10,681 nt of DNA, from positions 1-10,681 of IMG/VR virus record IMGVR_UViG_2671181127_000010. One strand, written 5' to 3'. Shown piece by piece: positions 1,243 to 7,462 of the stretch. Numbering within the stretch: the stretch's first letter is position 1; every line of letters starts with the position of its first letter. The DNA comes from a virus. Lineage: Duplodnaviria > Heunggongvirae > Uroviricota > Caudoviricetes. Under the pieces are notes generated by a model. It was given only the letters and a program-made list of their open reading frames with translations, made no database searches and had not been told where the DNA came from. The translations under genes and the position numbers were made by a program.

Positions 1243-1319
1243 CTGTACAGAAAACCAGTAAAAACTACGAAAACCATGTAAAACCGTCGTATAATTGCAT
1301 CAAATTTAACGACAAGGCC

Positions 1320-1571
1320 GTGAAACATGAAACCGTTAAGATGCAAAAAAATATCAGATGCAATTGCGACGGGCTGCAACTGGCCCTGATGGTTCAGCAT
1401 GAATTTTGGTCAACCTACGATCCGGAGGACAGAACGACGGCCCCATCAAAAAAACAGGTAGTAGATTTTCTGGTATCCCGTGGCGCTTCCAGAAATCTGG
1501 CGGTAAGTATTGATAAGGTCGTACGTCCGGCATCTATGAAGATCGGAGGCAGGCCCAAAAAATGGCGGTAA
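1320..1571 (+). CDS. Hypothetical small protein (83 aa from GTG 1320; in-frame ATG at 1341)
   Basis: ORF between int and alpA, ends 10 bp before a clean intrinsic terminator; weak RBS, start uncertain; no recognisable motif. Confidence 0.3.
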   Translation: MKHETVKMQKNIRCNCDGLQLALMVQHEFWSTYDPEDRTTAPSKKQVVDFLVSRGASRNLAVSIDKVVRPASMKIGGRPKKWR

Positions 1572-1581
1572 CAATCCTGGA

Positions 1582-1606
1582 AGCGGCAGAAATGCCGCTT
1601 TTTTTA
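1582..1606 (+). terminator. Rho-independent terminator (AGCGGCA-gaaa-TGCCGCT plus T-run)
   Basis: Perfect 7-bp stem, 4-nt loop, followed by 8 T residues. Confidence 0.6.
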
Positions 1607-1632
1607 TAATTCCATTTCAAATCATCAATATA

Positions 1633-1720
1633 AAAAACGGTGTATACCGTTTAAAAACGGTGGGAACTGTTTTTACCCATATCCGATGATTTACCGTATT
1701 TGTCACCGGAATACACCGGA
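1633..1720. promoter_or_regulatory. Repeat-containing region upstream of alpA (candidate promoter/operator)
   Basis: Direct repeat AAAAACGGTG at 1633-1642 and 1653-1662 (20-bp phasing); small palindrome ACGGT-gtat-ACCGT at 1637-1650; tandem CACCGGA at 1704-1710 and 1714-1720. Confidence 0.3.
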
Positions 1721-1738
1721 TTCACAAGGTAAATCACG

Positions 1739-1945
1739 ATGGAAGCAATCAGAAAAATTATCTTTCGCCAGGAAGTAAAAAAAATTATCCACATCAAGGC
1801 AGACAGCACGCTGCAAAGCATGATCAACGCCGGAGAATTTCCGCAGGGTTTTCGCGTTGGTTTACGCCGTCGCGGATGGTATGAGGATGATGTGTTGGCC
1901 TGGCAGAAAGAACGCGAACAGGAAGCACGCGGAACGGCTGCTTAA
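1739..1945 (+). CDS. alpA: AlpA-family (prophage CP4-57 regulatory, Vis-like) small DNA-binding regulator, 68 aa
   Basis: Size, position downstream of a P4-family integrase, and motif FRQEV...GEFPQGFRVGLRRRGWYEDDVLAW matching the AlpA pattern (RLPEV...GxFP.P.KLG.R...W...V..W). RBS AAGG 9 nt upstream. Confidence 0.75.
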   Translation: MEAIRKIIFRQEVKKIIHIKADSTLQSMINAGEFPQGFRVGLRRRGWYEDDVLAWQKEREQEARGTAA

Positions 1946-2093
1946 CGGGTATCACAGATATGACAAACACGAAAAAAGCGGCCCCGATATGGAGCCGCCT
2001 TTCTGAACAATTAACCCGCTGCGCCTTATGTGTATATGATCCCAAACATAAGCACGGGGATGATAGCCGCTATCAGGCTGGTGGGCAATGCAA

Positions 2094-2282
2094 TCAGTCT
2101 GGTTCAGTTCGTTGCCATACCTGCAATGAGCGCGTTTCCCTGTACTCTTTAAGGAATTGCTCAAGGGCAAAAGCACATGGCGCGAATCTTTCTGATTCAT
2201 GCTCTATCTTTCTGCGCCGTCTTTTCCGTGCCGGTGATAATGTTTTGGTCAATTCTTTATCGGTCATTGTGTTGTCCTGCAT
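2094..2282 (-). CDS. Hypothetical small basic protein (62 aa; alternative start at 2267)
   Basis: ORF downstream of the RHH gene on the same strand; contains an RRRRK run; weak RBS. Low support. Confidence 0.2.
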   Translation of the reverse strand: MQDNTMTDKELTKTLSPARKRRRRKIEHESERFAPCAFALEQFLKEYRETRSLQVWQRTEPD

Positions 2283-2324
2283 AGCAATGCGCCGTAATAC
2301 CTTACACCACGGCGCTGATGGTGA

Positions 2325-2630
2325 TTACTCTGGTTCTTTGGTCTTGCGGCGCTGGAGTTCTTCACGTGCGACAGTGACGAGCTGCCCGATCTCCTCGGCG
2401 GCTTTGATTCCGAGTTTTTCCACCTGCGCCAGTGCATCGAGCGAAGAAACTAGGGGATTTTCTCCACTTCCTTCTGCCTGGCGCCGGGCGATCTCACCGC
2501 GTACAGCCGTAACTATAAAATTCGCTTTAGTTTCCCCTGGCTGTAGGGATGCCTCAATGCCACTCACTACTTCATGTGGAAATCTGGCATTCAGTTGCTG
2601 TGACTTATTGTTAACAGAACTCCTGGACAT
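2325..2630 (-). CDS. Ribbon-helix-helix (Arc/Mnt-like) DNA-binding protein, 101 aa; candidate master repressor of the island
   Basis: Start ATG at 2630-2628 (minus) preceded by strong RBS GGAGGTG. N-terminus QQLNARFPHEVVSGIEASLQPGETKANFIVTAV fits the Arc/Mnt RHH pattern (hN.R.P.EV...A...G.S.N..I...V). Divergent from the Ash operon across an operator-bearing intergenic region. The long ORF-track version (2325..2810) is an N-terminal over-extension. Confidence 0.65.
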   Translation of the reverse strand: MSRSSVNNKSQQLNARFPHEVVSGIEASLQPGETKANFIVTAVRGEIARRQAEGSGENPLVSSLDALAQVEKLGIKAAEEIGQLVTVAREELQRRKTKEPE

Positions 2631-2660
2631 GTTTGCACCTCCCATTAATAACGGGATGCA

Positions 2661-2727
2661 GTGTAATACAAAAGTGAATACCAAAAAAGACTTGAAATGG
2701 TATTCACCTAAATGTAATGTGAATACC
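2661..2727. promoter_or_regulatory. Operator array in divergent promoter region (9-bp inverted repeats GTGAATACC / GGTATTCAC)
   Basis: GTGAATACC at 2674-2682 and 2719-2727, GGTATTCAC at 2699-2707; TGTAAT immediately 5' of sites at 2662-2667 and 2713-2718; possible -35 TTGAAA at 2692-2697 lying inside the first inverted repeat. Confidence 0.55.
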
Positions 2728-2765
2728 ACAAGTGCTGATACATGCAATTCAGCAATTGAAACGAC

Positions 2766-2800
2766 GAAGCCCCGCACTGTTGGAGCAGTAACGGGGCTTC
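2766..2800 (+). other. Stem-loop in the 5' leader of the Ash operon (GAAGCCCCG ... CGGGGCTTC)
   Basis: Perfect 9-bp GC-rich inverted repeat with 17-nt loop, 28 bp upstream of the 2829 start codon; no T-run, so not a canonical terminator. Confidence 0.3.
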
Positions 2801-2828
2801 TAACCAACAACGTAAACTAGGAGCCGTT

Positions 2829-3386
2829 ATGGTTGCTGTAAATCATATACCACACCTTGTACACACACAAACGGCCTTTGTGTGGCGTTTTCTGGCCCTG
2901 AATATCGGAGAAAAAAACCGCTTGATCGCCACCAGCAAAAATGGCTATGATTCCCGCGCACCTCATAAAACGGGTGTCGGGATTAGCCTCCTGAAAACAA
3001 CTGAAGCGCACAGCACGCGCCCTGCGTGTTTTTTTGTGCCGCATAGTCACACCTTATCAATGGTGGGCTGTACGGGGGCGGAGCAATCCGCGCCGGTTTC
3101 TTCAGTGTCCGGTAAGGCTAACCCTGTACAGTCCGCCACCAGCGAAATTAGCCTTTTGCGTGGCGGTTATCTTAACCACACTGAGGAGGCTGCCAACATG
3201 GCTACTATCCCTACCCTTGTACATTCTCAAACCGCATTTATCTGGCGCTTTATCATCTTTGGCGCGTCAGAATCTCAAATCATCCACGTAACCGCCTGGA
3301 CGGAACGCGAAGCGCGTAGCCGTTGCCCGTCAGGTTGTGTTGCTGTATTCGCCGCCCGTATTCGTCAGGGGTCACATCATGCGTAA
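2829..3386 (+). CDS. Ash-family-like protein with C-terminal Icd-like domain (185 aa)
   Basis: RBS TAGGAG 6 nt upstream of ATG. Contains two copies of the motif VH.QTAF.WRF and a C-terminal TEREAR...VFAARIRQG block, which I recall as the signature of Ash / Icd-like small proteins of P4-type islands (family name from memory, not verified). Confidence 0.55.
   Translation: MVAVNHIPHLVHTQTAFVWRFLALNIGEKNRLIATSKNGYDSRAPHKTGVGISLLKTTEAHSTRPACFFVPHSHTLSMVGCTGAEQSAPVSSVSGKANPVQSATSEISLLRGGYLNHTEEAANMATIPTLVHSQTAFIWRFIIFGASESQIIHVTAWTEREARSRCPSGCVAVFAARIRQGSHHA
3198..3386 (+). CDS. Icd-like small protein, 62 aa: in-frame internal start inside the 2829..3386 ORF
   Basis: Strong RBS GAGGAGG 7 nt upstream of internal ATG 3198; product MATIPTLVHSQTAFIWRF...TEREARSR...VFAARIRQG is a complete Icd-like unit. 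Could be a separately translated nested product. Confidence 0.4.
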   Translation: MATIPTLVHSQTAFIWRFIIFGASESQIIHVTAWTEREARSRCPSGCVAVFAARIRQGSHHA

Positions 3387-3843
3387 AAACCGCTTGCAAA
3401 AAATTATAACGGGGCTGTATGCTTCCCCAGTCGCCCACATGGCGACCGGGTTTAGCAGCCTGAATACTACAGCGGACAGCCGCTTACATTCCGATATGCG
3501 GTTTTTTTGTGTCCGTAAACCTACCCATACCCGCATTATGGCGGGGCGTAACGGGGGAGCCTTTGCGCTCGCTGGTTCCTGTAGTGCCAGTCTGCTAACC
3601 CTGTTACGTCTCGCCACCCCGTTTAGCAGCGTAGTAGCGAGACTCCTTAATTTCACTACAGGAGCCTTTCACATGGCTGTATTCACACGCCCTTATTTTG
3701 TCTGGCGCTTTATGCAGTGCCACCACAGCAGCATTGATATTTACACCGTTACCGCAGCCACTGAACGCGAAGCCCGCGCCCAGTTGCCGCACGCACATCT
3801 GATTTTTGTCGCCCGTATTCGTCAGGGGGTGTGCCATGCCTGA
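3379..3843 (+). CDS. Ash-family-like paralog with C-terminal Icd-like domain (154 aa from ATG 3379)
   Basis: Motifs FFCVRKPTHTRIMAG (paralogous to CFFVPHSHTLSMVG in the upstream gene) and YFVWRF...TEREARAQ...IFVARIRQG. Start 3379 overlaps the upstream stop by 8 nt; the ORF-track start 3337 is probably an over-extension. Confidence 0.55.
   Translation: MRKNRLQKIITGLYASPVAHMATGFSSLNTTADSRLHSDMRFFCVRKPTHTRIMAGRNGGAFALAGSCSASLLTLLRLATPFSSVVARLLNFTTGAFHMAVFTRPYFVWRFMQCHHSSIDIYTVTAATEREARAQLPHAHLIFVARIRQGVCHA
3673..3843 (+). CDS. Icd-like small protein, 56 aa: in-frame internal start inside the 3379..3843 ORF
   Basis: RBS CAGGAG 8 nt upstream of ATG 3673; product MAVFTRPYFVWRF...TEREARAQ...VARIRQG. 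Confidence 0.35.
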   Translation: MAVFTRPYFVWRFMQCHHSSIDIYTVTAATEREARAQLPHAHLIFVARIRQGVCHA

Positions 3844-4156
3844 TATGTCAAATTACCAGTACCTGATTAATCCGCATTTTAAGTGTGATCATGATATTGC
3901 TAAGAAGGTTTATTCCGCTGCTTATGGGGCTACTGACAATATATCAATGGGTATTGCGTCAATTGGTAGCCTGATGTGGTATGCGTCAGAAAATAAGGAA
4001 TATGACGAAAAGGCCATGCGCATTGATATGGGTAATATCGGTTTGTTACTGGCAATGCTTGGGCAGTTTGATATTTCGTTACGGTGCACCATTGAAAATG
4101 CCAAAGATGCATTAAATGCTATAAAGAAAGCGAATACTGATTTAAATCGGGGATAA
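3836..4156 (+). CDS. Hypothetical protein, 106 aa, AT-rich cargo-like gene
   Basis: ATG 3836 with RBS GGGGGTG, overlaps upstream stop (ATGCCTGA). About 35% GC in the first 60 nt versus clearly more GC-rich flanking genes. No recognisable motif. Confidence 0.55.
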   Translation: MPDMSNYQYLINPHFKCDHDIAKKVYSAAYGATDNISMGIASIGSLMWYASENKEYDEKAMRIDMGNIGLLLAMLGQFDISLRCTIENAKDALNAIKKANTDLNRG

Positions 4157-4162
4157 ATAATC

Positions 4163-4462
4163 ATGAGAACATATTTATCTGGCTTGACTGCCAGCGGCCC
4201 CGCTCGGCCTGAAATCCGCCCCGGAGATATTTTCAGAGATAACTACGGTGGCGTTGTTGAGATTAAAGGCGTGGCAGAACGGCGCATTACCTACCGCCGT
4301 GAAGGCTACGAATATGATTGCGTGATGCCTGTTTATCAGTTCCGGCGTGATTTTTCTCTGGTACAGGCAGCGCCCCGCAGTAAACCAACCAGCAGGGAGA
4401 AAGCACGCGCCAATATTCAGGAAATAAGAAAGATGTTGAATGTATTCAGGGGTAAAAAATGA
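4163..4462 (+). CDS. Hypothetical protein, 99 aa, immediately upstream of and coupled to the primase
   Basis: ATG 4163; stop overlaps primase start (ATGA at 4459-4462). Basic C-terminus. Function unknown. Confidence 0.55.
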   Translation: MRTYLSGLTASGPARPEIRPGDIFRDNYGGVVEIKGVAERRITYRREGYEYDCVMPVYQFRRDFSLVQAAPRSKPTSREKARANIQEIRKMLNVFRGKK

Positions 4463-6207
4463 AACTGGCACCGAACGTAAAAAAACAACCACGCGGAATA
4501 AAACACAAAGACACAGAGGTAATTATTTTCGCGGGTAGTGATGCGTGGGCACATGCAAAACAGTGGCAGGAGCAGGACGGCCCCGCATCCGGCGATAATG
4601 TGCCGCCTGTGTGGCTTGGGCCAAATCAGCTTGCCGAACTTGATGCACTGAAAATTGTTCCTGATGGAAAAAAACGCGTAAGGCTGTACCAGGCCGGAGA
4701 ACTGGATTTGGTGGAGACCAAAAAGATTGGTCAGAAGCTGGCGGCGGCAGATATTCAGGACGCAAATTTTTACCCCGAAGGAATGCACGTCCAGAAGTGT
4801 GAAAACTGGCGGCGCTATCTGAATGCTGAGCGTGAAAATATTGCCGCAGGGCTTACCATGCCGGAGCAGAAAAATACGCAACTGGCACAAATGGCAGACA
4901 GTGAGCGCGCGCAGCTGCTTGCCGAGCGCTTTGATGGCGTTTGTGTGCATCCGGAAAGTGAAATCGTTCACGTATGGCGCGGCGGGGTATGGTGTCCGGT
5001 CAGCACAATGGAACTTAGCCGCGAAATGGTGGCGATCTATTCAGAGCACAGGGCCACTTTCAGCAAGCGCGTAATCAATAACGCCGTGGAAGCGTTAAAA
5101 GTTATTGCCGAACCAATGGGCGAGCCGTCCGGCGATTTGTTGCCGTTCGCCAATGGTGCGCTTGACCTGAAAACGGGGGAATTTTCCCCGCACACGCCGG
5201 AGAACTGGATCACCACGCACAACGGCATTGAGTACACGCCACCAGCACCAGGGGAGAATATCTGCGACAACGCGCCAAACTTTCATAAATGGCTTGAGCA
5301 CGCAGCCGGAAAAGACCCGCGCAAGATGATGCGTATATGTGCCGCGCTGTACATGATTATGGCGAACCGGTACGACTGGCAGATGTTTATTGAGGCCACC
5401 GGAGAGGGCGGTAGCGGTAAAAGTACATTCACGCACATAGCCAGCCTTCTGGCAGGGAAACAGAACACGGTAAGCGCTGAAATGACCTCACTTGATGATG
5501 CTGGTGGACGTGCGCAGGTTGTCGGGAGTCGTCTTATCGTCCTGGCTGACCAGCCGAAATATACAGGCGAAGGAACGGGCATCAAGAAAATCACGGGCGG
5601 CGACCCCGTGGAAATAAACCCGAAATATGAGAAGCGTTTTACGGCGGTAATCAGGGCGGTGGTGCTGGCTACCAACAATAACCCGATGATATTCACCGAG
5701 CGGGCCGGAGGTGTGTCACGCCGTCGGGTGATTTTCCGGTTCGACAACATTGTAAGGGAGGACGAAAAAGACAAGGATTTGCCGGAGAAGGTCGCGGCTG
5801 AAATCCCCGTAATTATCCGTCGCTTGCTGGCTAATTTTGCCGACCCTGAAAAGGCACGGGCTTTATTACTGGAACAGCGCGACGGTGATGAAGCTCTGGC
5901 AATAAAGCAACAGACGGATCCGGTTATTGAGTTTTGCCAGTTCCTGAATTTTCTGGAGGAAGCACGCGGCCTGATGATGGGCGGCGGTGGCGATTCAGTG
6001 AAGTACACGACCAGAAACAGCCTTTACCGCGTCTATCTGGCGTTTATGGCATACGCAGGCAGGAGCAAACCGCTAAACGTGGCTGAGTTCAGCAAGGCCA
6101 TGAAGACAGCGGCAAAAGTTTACGGACATGAATATATTACGCGGAGAGTTAAGGGAGTAACGCAGACCAACGCAATTACAACTGATGATTGTGACGCGTT
6201 TTTATAA
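4459..6207 (+). CDS. Replication protein: primase / D5-type SF3 NTPase (P4 alpha C-terminal-like), 582 aa
   Basis: Walker A GEGGSGKST encoded around 5401-5427 in the D5/P4-alpha-type context (phage/plasmid primase P4-family C-terminal NTPase); RBS AGGGG 7 nt upstream; followed directly by an iteron array. Confidence 0.88.
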   Translation: MKLAPNVKKQPRGIKHKDTEVIIFAGSDAWAHAKQWQEQDGPASGDNVPPVWLGPNQLAELDALKIVPDGKKRVRLYQAGELDLVETKKIGQKLAAADIQDANFYPEGMHVQKCENWRRYLNAERENIAAGLTMPEQKNTQLAQMADSERAQLLAERFDGVCVHPESEIVHVWRGGVWCPVSTMELSREMVAIYSEHRATFSKRVINNAVEALKVIAEPMGEPSGDLLPFANGALDLKTGEFSPHTPENWITTHNGIEYTPPAPGENICDNAPNFHKWLEHAAGKDPRKMMRICAALYMIMANRYDWQMFIEATGEGGSGKSTFTHIASLLAGKQNTVSAEMTSLDDAGGRAQVVGSRLIVLADQPKYTGEGTGIKKITGGDPVEINPKYEKRFTAVIRAVVLATNNNPMIFTERAGGVSRRRVIFRFDNIVREDEKDKDLPEKVAAEIPVIIRRLLANFADPEKARALLLEQRDGDEALAIKQQTDPVIEFCQFLNFLEEARGLMMGGGGDSVKYTTRNSLYRVYLAFMAYAGRSKPLNVAEFSKAMKTAAKVYGHEYITRRVKGVTQTNAITTDDCDAFL

Positions 6208-6219
6208 TTTTTTGTAAAA

Positions 6220-6446
6220 GCCCTCTACCCCATCTACCTGAATGAAATAAACGCATATTATTCAACATGATAAGTGGGTAGAGGGCTAGGTAGAAGGCTA
6301 ATAAAACCTCTCTACCTCTTCTACCATGATTAAGATCGTTTGTGAGGGGCGGGTAGAGGATGGGTAGAGGGCCACGAAAGCCCTCTACCCATCTGAAAGC
6401 CGCGCCATTACTGACATGAAAGATGATTAGGTAGAGAGGTAGAGGA
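6220..6446. repeat. Iteron array / putative replication origin (11 copies of GGTAGAGG / CCTCTACC and variants)
   Basis: Octamer copies at 6222, 6231, 6277, 6289, 6309, 6318, 6352, 6363, 6382, 6430, 6438 in both orientations; perfect 14-bp inverted repeat GATGGGTAGAGGGC (6359-6372) / GCCCTCTACCCATC (6380-6393); AT-rich segment 6239-6275 between repeat clusters. Confidence 0.7.
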
Positions 6447-6493
6447 GGTGCACCACAACCTAAAACTTTTTAAACACGAGGGTAAAAATAAAA

Positions 6494-6772
6494 ATGCACA
6501 CATCAGGAAGATTTAACAAATCACTCAAAAAACGCAAAGACAGAACAGCACCAAGATATAAAGCGCTGGAGATGACAGAGCACGCCTTAAAGGTGGCTAT
6601 AAAGGTGATAGACATCACAGCGGGAGAAGGATACTCGAAAGCACATCCCGAACTAATAAGCGCATTCATGACCACGGCGGCGGCAAACTTTGCCACGCTG
6701 ACAGAGCGGGAGATTGCAGAAGCGGAACAGGTAACAACCATCAACGTTAAAACCGGAGAGGTGGAATCATGA
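6494..6772 (+). CDS. Hypothetical protein, 92 aa
   Basis: ORF directly after the iterons; stop overlaps the SSB start (ATGA at 6769-6772); RBS-like GAGGGT about 11 nt upstream. Confidence 0.5.
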   Translation: MHTSGRFNKSLKKRKDRTAPRYKALEMTEHALKVAIKVIDITAGEGYSKAHPELISAFMTTAAANFATLTEREIAEAEQVTTINVKTGEVES

Positions 6773-7179
6773 CAGCACAGATAGCCGCTTACGGGCGGCT
6801 GGTGGACGACCCGCAGGTAAAACAGACCAGCAAGGGTACACCGATGACGCTGGCGCGTATGGCGGTATCTTTGCCATGTAGTCAGGCGCAGGATGGGCAG
6901 GCGACGTTATGGCTATCGGTCATCGCATTTGGTAAGCAGGCCGACTTCCTGGCTAAACATCAAAAAGGCGACGTTGCCAGCGTATCCGGCACGATGCAGG
7001 TCAGCCAGTGGACCGGACAGAACGGGGAAACGCGGCAGGGTTATCAGGTTATTGCAGACAGCGTAATCAGTGCCCGTGCGGCACGTCCTGGCGGGAACAG
7101 ACGCAAAACCACAGGCACACAGGGTAATCAGCCACCAGCGGGAGACGATGACCCCTACGGTGATGATATTCAGTTCTGA
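6769..7179 (+). CDS. ssb: Single-stranded DNA-binding protein (SSB family), 136 aa
   Basis: N-terminal OB-fold pattern IAAYGRLVDDPQVKQTSKGTPMTLARMAVS and LWLSVIAFGKQADFLA...QVSQWTGQNGETRQGYQV parallels E. coli SSB; Gly/Pro/Gln-rich linker; acidic C-terminal tip DDDPYGDDIQF analogous to the SSB DDDIPF tail. RBS GGAGAGG upstream. Confidence 0.8.
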   Translation: MTAQIAAYGRLVDDPQVKQTSKGTPMTLARMAVSLPCSQAQDGQATLWLSVIAFGKQADFLAKHQKGDVASVSGTMQVSQWTGQNGETRQGYQVIADSVISARAARPGGNRRKTTGTQGNQPPAGDDDPYGDDIQF

Positions 7180-7189
7180 GGGGGTGACG

Positions 7190-7462
7190 ATGGTACATGA
7201 CCGCATAGCGGAGGAACTCGAGGCAAAAGGCTTTTACCGGAGGGCATCGGCGCGATGGGGTGAAGTCATGCTGCTGGTGGAGACAGACAAGGAACGGCAT
7301 CAGGTTACGATGCGACGGCTGGAATGTTCCAGGAAGGCACAGAAGCCACCGGAGCCGCCGGATAACTTCGGAGACCTGAGAAAGGCAGTAGATCGCACTT
7401 ATGCTGAAATGGGTATAGATGGTGTAAGCGATGAAATATGGCGTAATTACCCAGACAGCTAA
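7190..7462 (+). CDS. Hypothetical protein, 90 aa
   Basis: ATG 7190 with RBS GGGGGTGA, 11 nt after the SSB stop; the ORF-track start 7070 overlaps the SSB and is an over-extension. Followed by a terminator. Confidence 0.55.
   Translation: MVHDRIAEELEAKGFYRRASARWGEVMLLVETDKERHQVTMRRLECSRKAQKPPEPPDNFGDLRKAVDRTYAEMGIDGVSDEIWRNYPDS

Follow-up and report, generated by a model that had tools for sequence, protein, structure and literature searches.

An iteron array directly downstream of the Pri-Rep gene as the probable replication origin of an EcCICFT073-type phage-inducible chromosomal island

Gene content of the island and layout of the array

The window, by which we mean the whole 10,681-bp stretch of DNA that was analyzed, carries a tyrosine integrase gene (int) at 1-1242, followed by genes for an HTH regulator, Ash, an Icd-like protein, a DUF4222 protein, and Pri-Rep, then by the repeat array, a small ORF, and genes for SSB, PerC, a lambda-E-type capsid protein, and a decoration protein, with all of these genes on the + strand. 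Judged by its sequence, the window is an EcCICFT073-type Gram-negative PICI (phage-inducible chromosomal island) of Escherichia coli. The context that marks a PICI was found, namely int, a regulator, pri-rep, rightward unidirectional genes, a size of about 10 to 12 kb, and an att site of its own, and the window's gene order, including capsid (c1499) and decoration (c1500) homologs, is shared by the EcCICFT073 reference locus (L014; CFT073, NC_004431, 1377000-1390000). The closest E. coli copy matches the window at 98.4% over 5900-6800 and belongs to an island of approximately 10 kb with a corresponding gene order. This copy adjoins tRNA-Pro, between yejM and yejO, whereas EcCICFT073 is integrated between roxA (ycfD) and phoQ.

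Other parts of the island are less constant. Only one E. coli genome covered at least 80% of 1243-4458, indicating that this part of the island is variable. A 286-aa ORF located there (1960-2820, + strand), between the HTH regulator gene and ash, had no Pfam, PHROG, or PADLOC match and may be an accessory gene; PADLOC, applied to the unannotated ORFs of the window, found nothing. One replication module (DUF4222, Pri-Rep, ori, small ORF, SSB) is accompanied by differing packaging modules in the E. coli islands L002, L003, L004, L006, L010, and L011. Among them are the module seen in the window, with a lambda-E-type capsid and a decoration protein; the capsid-forming PICI type, with an HK97 capsid, prohead protease, and portal; a fusion of protease and capsid; and a small terminase. 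Some E. coli strains carry an annotated IS1 in the replication module; it lies inside the Pri-Rep gene of L007 (1521-2287), where the downstream origin array is still intact, and under the match H2 (NZ_AP045179).

The features from the Pri-Rep gene to the SSB gene are as follows, with strand given where one applies.

4459-6207, + strand: gene for the 582-aa Pri-Rep protein; D5_N, SF3 helicase, and C-terminal Pox_D5 follow an N-terminal part of 140 aa that has no Pfam match
5914-6180, + strand: predicted winged-helix origin-binding domain, Pri-Rep codons 486-574, from a phmmer match to PDB 1KA8
6222-6238, - strand: iteron pair 1, GGTAGAGG at 6222-6229 and GGTAGATG at 6231-6238; left border of the AT-rich spacer
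6239-6276: AT-rich spacer, candidate DNA-unwinding element; 38 bp, 74% A+T, between divergent pairs
6277-6296, + strand: iteron pair 2, GGTAGAGG at 6277-6284 and GGTAGAAG at 6289-6296
6309-6325, - strand: iteron pair 3, GGTAGAGA at 6309-6316 and GGTAGAAG at 6318-6325
6352-6370, + strand: iteron pair 4, GGTAGAGG twice, at 6352-6359 and 6363-6370
6359-6393: perfect 14-bp inverted repeat, arms GATGGGTAGAGGGC (6359-6372) and GCCCTCTACCCATC (6380-6393), 7-nt spacer CACGAAA
6382-6389, - strand: single iteron GGTAGAGG, convergent partner of 6363+
6394-6413: conserved 20-bp non-iteron block TGAAAGCCGCGCCATTACTG inside the origin
6430-6445, + strand: iteron pair 5, GGTAGAGA at 6430-6437 and GGTAGAGG at 6438-6445; right border of the array
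6462-6475: invariant block AAAACTTTTTAAAC, a short way ahead of the ribosome-binding site of the downstream gene
6494-7179, + strand: downstream genes, for a 92-aa protein (phrog_1231, unknown function) and then the island's own SSB

The array begins 15 nt past the stop codon (6205-6207) of the 582-aa Pri-Rep gene. A search of the window for GGTAGAGG that allowed up to one mismatch returned 15 matches, a number reached by none of 200 dinucleotide-preserving shuffles (mean, 4.25), and 11 of the 15 lie within 6222-6445, 6 of them exact and 5 with one mismatch. Their starts and strands are 6222-, 6231-, 6277+, 6289+, 6309-, 6318-, 6352+, 6363+, 6382-, 6430+, and 6438+. The octamers stand mostly in close pairs, with 8 to 12 bp from start to start, in both orientations, and the divergent pairs 1 and 2 border the 38-bp spacer. 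Thus, the eleven octamers in approximately 230 bp that had been reported from the sequence, paired in both orientations around an AT-rich segment, are correct in coordinates and counts. Since the longest ORF inside the array is no more than 31 aa, the array is not coding.

The hexamer core shared by the octamers, GGTAGA/TCTACC, has all 11 of its window copies inside 6224-6443, compared to approximately 5 that would be expected over the 10,681 bp by length alone. The remaining 10.4 kb or so contains no copy, where about 5 would again be expected, and the whole EcCICFT073 locus has 11 GGTAGA cores in its array and 1 elsewhere. The scarcity of the core outside the origin in both the window and the EcCICFT073 locus may reflect avoidance of stray initiator sites.

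The least stable 30-mers of the region include the AT-rich spacer (6239-6276), which lies approximately 2.4 standard deviations below the mean stability of the window; 6198-6228 and 6461-6497 are just as unstable. With the spacer only moderately unstable and two flanking stretches equal to it, these values do not pin down the site of melting. The array had no match in the phage collection and a single, partial match (78.6%) in the plasmid collection. An Rfam match to a plant miRNA, obtained in a search at E <= 1, was dismissed as sub-threshold (24 bits, compared to a gathering score of 46.5).

The Pri-Rep protein and comparison with P4 and SaPI origins

Pri-Rep contains the Pfam domains D5_N (residues 151-280), DUF5906 (314-415), and Pox_D5 (485-573) as well as the Walker A motif GEGGSGKS, and it is 89% identical to the Pri-Rep of EcCICFT073. 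For residues 186-437, a match (1.6e-14) was obtained to the helicase region of PDB 7OLA. This chain of 797 residues was deposited under the name "DNA primase," and we take it to be the Pri-Rep of a staphylococcal island. Residues 141-571 align with residues 326-756 of P4 alpha at 40% identity over 432 aligned positions. A phmmer search matched residues 486-574 to chain residues 2-89 of PDB 1KA8, the origin-binding domain of P4 alpha (E = 3e-6), which is described as a winged helix by Yeo et al. (2002), as cited in PMC2777425. On the basis of this match, the C-terminal domain of Pri-Rep is homologous to the origin-binding winged helix of P4 alpha.

The N-terminal part of the protein is different. 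P4 alpha residues 1-325, which contain the primase, have no counterpart in the 582-aa Pri-Rep, and Pri-Rep residues 1-140 (window 4459-4878) gave no alignment with that protein. A primase catalytic domain could not be detected in these 140 residues, which had no Pfam or NCBIfam match even at E = 10 and whose only PHROG matches were phrog_2850 (unknown function) and the start of phrog_864. They are also the most variable part of the protein, with identities of 41 to 100%. A single-sequence AF2 model of the N-terminal 150 aa had an alternating beta/alpha pattern, but its pLDDT of 60 was too poor for a fold search, as was the pLDDT of 47 obtained for the C-terminal 113 aa with a single-sequence AlphaFold model. 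The "primase" label arises from TIGR01613, which was matched at its cut-off over residues 227-493, that is, the helicase region. The original prediction, which placed the array immediately downstream of a primase gene, is borne out in the position, 15 nt past the stop; the naming of the gene is not supported, as no catalytic domain was detectable in residues 1-140.

The comparison with P4 extends from the protein to its binding sites. Like Pri-Rep, P4 alpha combines an SF3 helicase with a C-terminal winged-helix origin-binding domain, and like the window array, the P4 ori and crr consist of octamer iterons in both orientations, often in pairs 9 bp apart, with one cluster (crr) directly downstream of the initiator gene. 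The octamers themselves differ, being TGTTCACC in P4 and of the GGTAGAGG type in the window. Of the 16 repeats annotated as type 1 in the P4 record, the 11 inspected are TGTTCACC or differ from it by a single base, which confirms the P4 type I iteron given in the original prediction; TGTTCACC has zero copies in the window, so that the repeat is a different one, as predicted.

A second difference is that P4 depends on a pair of clusters, ori and crr, separated by 4.5 kb, and the island has one. In the P4 record, crr (4291-4590) lies directly downstream of alpha (alpha end, 4636) and the origin proper is 4.5 kb away. As the initiator of the window is a homolog of alpha and the P4 iteron cluster in the equivalent position is crr, the array could be a cis-acting replication enhancer of the crr kind, with the true origin located elsewhere in the island. 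We consider this very unlikely: there is no second cluster, with GGTAGA absent outside the array in the window and present once outside it in the whole EcCICFT073 locus, and a 2.1-kb pri-ori fragment of EcCICFT073 sustained plasmid replication alone (PMC6092414).

The origins of SaPIs and other Gram-positive PICIs likewise sit immediately 3' of the replication initiation gene (PMC6092414), and, as in the window, the SaPI origins consist of iteron sets around an AT-rich stretch. Their iteron sequences are unrelated to those of the window, the DNA-binding region and the lineage are different, and Gram-negative PICIs, unlike the SaPI lineage, are transcribed in one direction. The window array would work like the P4 and SaPI origins, and the family to which it belongs is that of the EcCICFT073-type PICI origins.

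Conservation of the array and the origin defined in EcCICFT073

The comparison of intergenic regions covered 13 islands of E. coli, one of Shigella, and 80 contigs from IMG/VR. Across related islands, including the functional EcCICFT073, the repeats are present with the same layout. In the window, 12 E. coli relatives with this type of initiator, and EcCICFT073, the shared iteron offsets from the stop codon are 17-, 26-, about 70+, 82+ (or 94-), 104-, 113-, 145+, 156+, 177-, 223+, and 231+. The intergenic DNA has diverged to 63% identity with the window in CFT073 and 57% in L008, with the adjacent coding DNA far more similar, yet invariant positions are concentrated in the hexamer cores, at 52 of 66 columns compared to 43 of the 188 other columns (Fisher p about 1e-15). 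In eight aligned relatives, 9 of the 11 iteron sites retain both position and orientation in every one. The TCTACC cores of pair 1 are invariant in 8/8, pair 3 has one core invariant in 8/8 and the other in 7/8, the cores of pair 4 are conserved in 8/8 and 7/8, the core of iteron 6382- is invariant in 8/8, and every relative retains both members of pair 5. For the second copy of pair 2, the CFT073 group has instead an inverted copy approximately 12 bp further on. The segment concerned, of approximately 23 bp, lies at 6287-6309 in the window (GGTAGAAGGCTAATAAAAC) and is inverted at 7078-7100 of L014 (reverse complement of GGTAGACAGTAAAAAAAGG), so that the fourth iteron flips its orientation and its presence is retained. 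All relatives, including those with other iteron types, have a spacer of similar length and A+T content after the first pair. The conservation of cores and layout within diverged intergenic DNA indicates that selection acts on the 6-bp core and the layout and not on the spacers; by this sequence comparison, the hexamer cores and their arrangement are under purifying selection across the relatives.

Two blocks outside the iterons are also conserved. The TGAAAGCCGCGCCATTACTG block has 18 of its 20 positions invariant in eight relatives whose intergenic DNA is otherwise 57 to 96% identical to that of the window. AAAACTTTTTAAAC was present in 15/15 GGTAGA-type loci checked (the window, L001-L010, L012-L014, and L016) and is replaced by AAAACTTTTTGCAC in the Morganella relative. 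Because it lies just upstream of a ribosome-binding site, AAAACTTTTTAAAC may serve gene expression or may be a part of the origin.

The inverted repeat at 6359-6393 was confirmed as perfect over 14 bp (6359-6372 and 6380-6393), with a 7-nt spacer. It is built from the convergent iterons 6363+ and 6382- together with flanking bases that also match. As single-stranded DNA, it has a strong predicted hairpin (-23.6 kcal/mol; z = -6.4), and this, together with its perfection, could suggest that function resides in the extruded palindrome (cruciform or hairpin), which might act as a signal for a primosome or for nicking, and that the other repeats are incidental. The comparison makes this most improbable. 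The convergent pair is kept in all relatives, but their arms range from 8 to 14 bp, shrinking to 8 to 12 bp with mismatches in some, and are imperfect in CFT073 (GGGGTAGATAGTG / CACTCTACCCC); the spacer varies and its sequence is not conserved. In addition, all of the other iterons are equally conserved, and no Rfam family was matched at threshold. With the pair conserved and the arms and spacer variable, the cruciform is not needed as an explanation and is not conserved as an element of its own; what is conserved is the convergent iteron pair.

Experimental evidence of function comes from the orthologous region of EcCICFT073 (Fillol-Salom et al. 2018, ISME J, PMC6092414). In that study, the EcCICFT073 pri-ori fragment kept a temperature-sensitive plasmid at 44 C, and neither the pri-delta-ori nor the delta-pri-ori fragment did so, demonstrating that the array and pri-rep are both needed for replication of the plasmid (PMC6092414). 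We mapped the supplementary primers of PMC6092414 on L014, which placed the pri-ori insert at 5198-7307 and the pri-delta-ori insert at 5198-7000. The deleted "ori" is accordingly L014 7001-7307, a 307-bp interval that comprises the 288-bp intergenic region and the first 23 nt of the next gene; it corresponds exactly to the intergenic array and contains 11 GGTAGA cores. One of the knockout primers of PMC6092414 includes GGTAGACAGGGTAGACAG, which is the first iteron pair. The counterpart of the deleted interval in the window is 6212-6516, and the window region aligns over its full length with the EcCICFT073 ori (L014 7001-7307) at 63% identity. Both have the array 3' of pri-rep, with 11 GGTAGA cores that agree in offset and orientation, and in both an AT-rich spacer follows pair 1 and the same non-iteron blocks are conserved. 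They differ in iteron positions 7-8, which are mostly GG, AG, or TG in the window and CA or TA in CFT073, in the orientation of the fourth iteron, which is opposite in the two as a result of the inversion of approximately 23 bp, and in the palindrome, which is perfect in the window and imperfect in CFT073.

More distant relatives have other repeats in the same place. A scan of genome contigs returned three loci, two of them usefully divergent: L017 (3268-3610; Serratia aquatilis) and L018 (2854-3140; Morganella morganii), the initiators of which are 52 to 53% identical to that of the window. Their arrays consist of about 10 copies of CTGTTCAC or (A/C)TGTTCAT at the same position, share the layout of a pair, an AT-rich spacer, and further pairs, and have iterons that are almost those of the P4 type-1 octamer. 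The presence of P4-like TGTTCA sites in these distant relatives makes the GGTAGA specificity of the E. coli/Shigella lineage appear derived; the E. coli lineage may have switched its specificity away from that of P4. In L011 (3134-3503; E. coli E110019), a DUF927-type initiator replaces Pri-Rep, and 11 repeats with an AACCCGC core (about ATAACCCGCA) occupy the same intergenic position. The genes upstream and downstream are homologous to those of the window, and the genes for the 92-aa protein and SSB follow the array in all relatives, including this island. The exchange of the repeats along with the upstream protein fits a cognate pair of initiator and origin and not an operator of the downstream operon.

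This exchange bears on the possibility that the repeats are operators through which a transcription regulator, such as PerC, Ash, or the HTH regulator, governs the SSB-PerC-capsid operon. The array is intergenic and directly upstream of that operon, and the invariant AAAACTTTTTAAAC lies beside a ribosome-binding site. A scan of 6100-6600, however, found neither a sigma-70-like promoter nor an intrinsic terminator; in L011, the repeats swap with the upstream initiator and the downstream genes stay homologous; and deletion of the orthologous EcCICFT073 region abolishes replication (PMC6092414). We therefore regard operator activity as very unlikely to be the primary function of the repeats. An additional regulatory role, such as autoregulation or control of read-through, could still accompany their function in replication.

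Taken together, orthology, conservation, covariation with the initiator, and the homology to 1KA8 support the original prediction, in which the array is a satellite origin recognized by the neighboring replication protein with a specificity unlike that of P4. From these comparisons, the array at 6222-6445 is very probably (a probability of roughly 0.9) the single, monopartite replication origin of an EcCICFT073-type PICI. After induction, Pri-Rep would bind the 8-bp iterons, with their GGTAGA core, through its C-terminal winged-helix domain. Because the iterons are paired approximately one helical turn apart in both orientations, Pri-Rep would be concentrated around the spacer at 6239-6276, where its SF3 helicase domain may assemble, melt the duplex, and load itself. 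The excised circle would then be copied by the host polymerase and the island's own SSB. The conserved TGAAAGCCGCGCCATTACTG block is given no part in this scheme. In this scheme, the contacts between domain and bases, the site of melting, the direction of replication, and the mode of priming are all what we infer.

Finer iteron specificity and its implications

The two bases that follow the core change in concert among the GGTAGA-type islands, positions 7-8 of the iteron being GG, AG, or TG in the group of the window and CA or TA in the CFT073 group; the GG and CA forms of the octamer are GGTAGAGG and GGTAGACA, respectively. The association of these positions with residues of the initiator was analyzed in 63 distinct origins from 91 loci. 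Alanine at residue 542 and serine at residue 545 of the origin-binding domain (A542/S545) occurred with G at iteron position 8 in 31 of 32 origins, and N542/G545 occurred with A at this position in 31 of 31, so that residues 542/545 and iteron positions 7-8 were associated in 62 of the 63 distinct origins, an association that could be explained by linkage, as the two lie only 100 to 200 bp apart. The exception is L057 (IMG/VR contig 3300029303_000153), in which window-type residues 542-545 are found with CFT073-type iterons; a second locus has the same origin sequence. L057 is a natural recombinant whose breakpoint falls within the coding sequence for the origin-binding domain, about 100 nt ahead of the stop codon of Pri-Rep, and its last 30 or so Pri-Rep codons and its whole origin are of the CFT073 type.

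We offer only tentatively, and consider rather unlikely, the suggestion that iteron positions 7-8 together with residues 542/545 (Ala/Ser versus Asn/Gly) define two orthogonal replicon specificities within one PICI family. Such islands co-occur, with up to five in an E. coli genome. If the suggestion is true, several islands could replicate side by side in a cell with no competition among them for initiators.

How the origins of Gram-negative PICIs are organized has been in print since 2018, when experiments also showed that EcCICFT073 needs the matching region for replication; the array is therefore an ordinary, already described feature. The present analysis adds the exact limits of the origin in this allele and the finding that constraint falls only on the 6-bp GGTAGA core and the layout of the sites. 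The comparison also yields a natural "specificity series" within one initiator family, made up of GGTAGA-GG, GGTAGA-CA/TA, TGTTCA(C/T), and P4 TGTTCACC. This series could guide work on changes of target among winged-helix origin-binding domains and on the cross-talk of satellites that share a cell.
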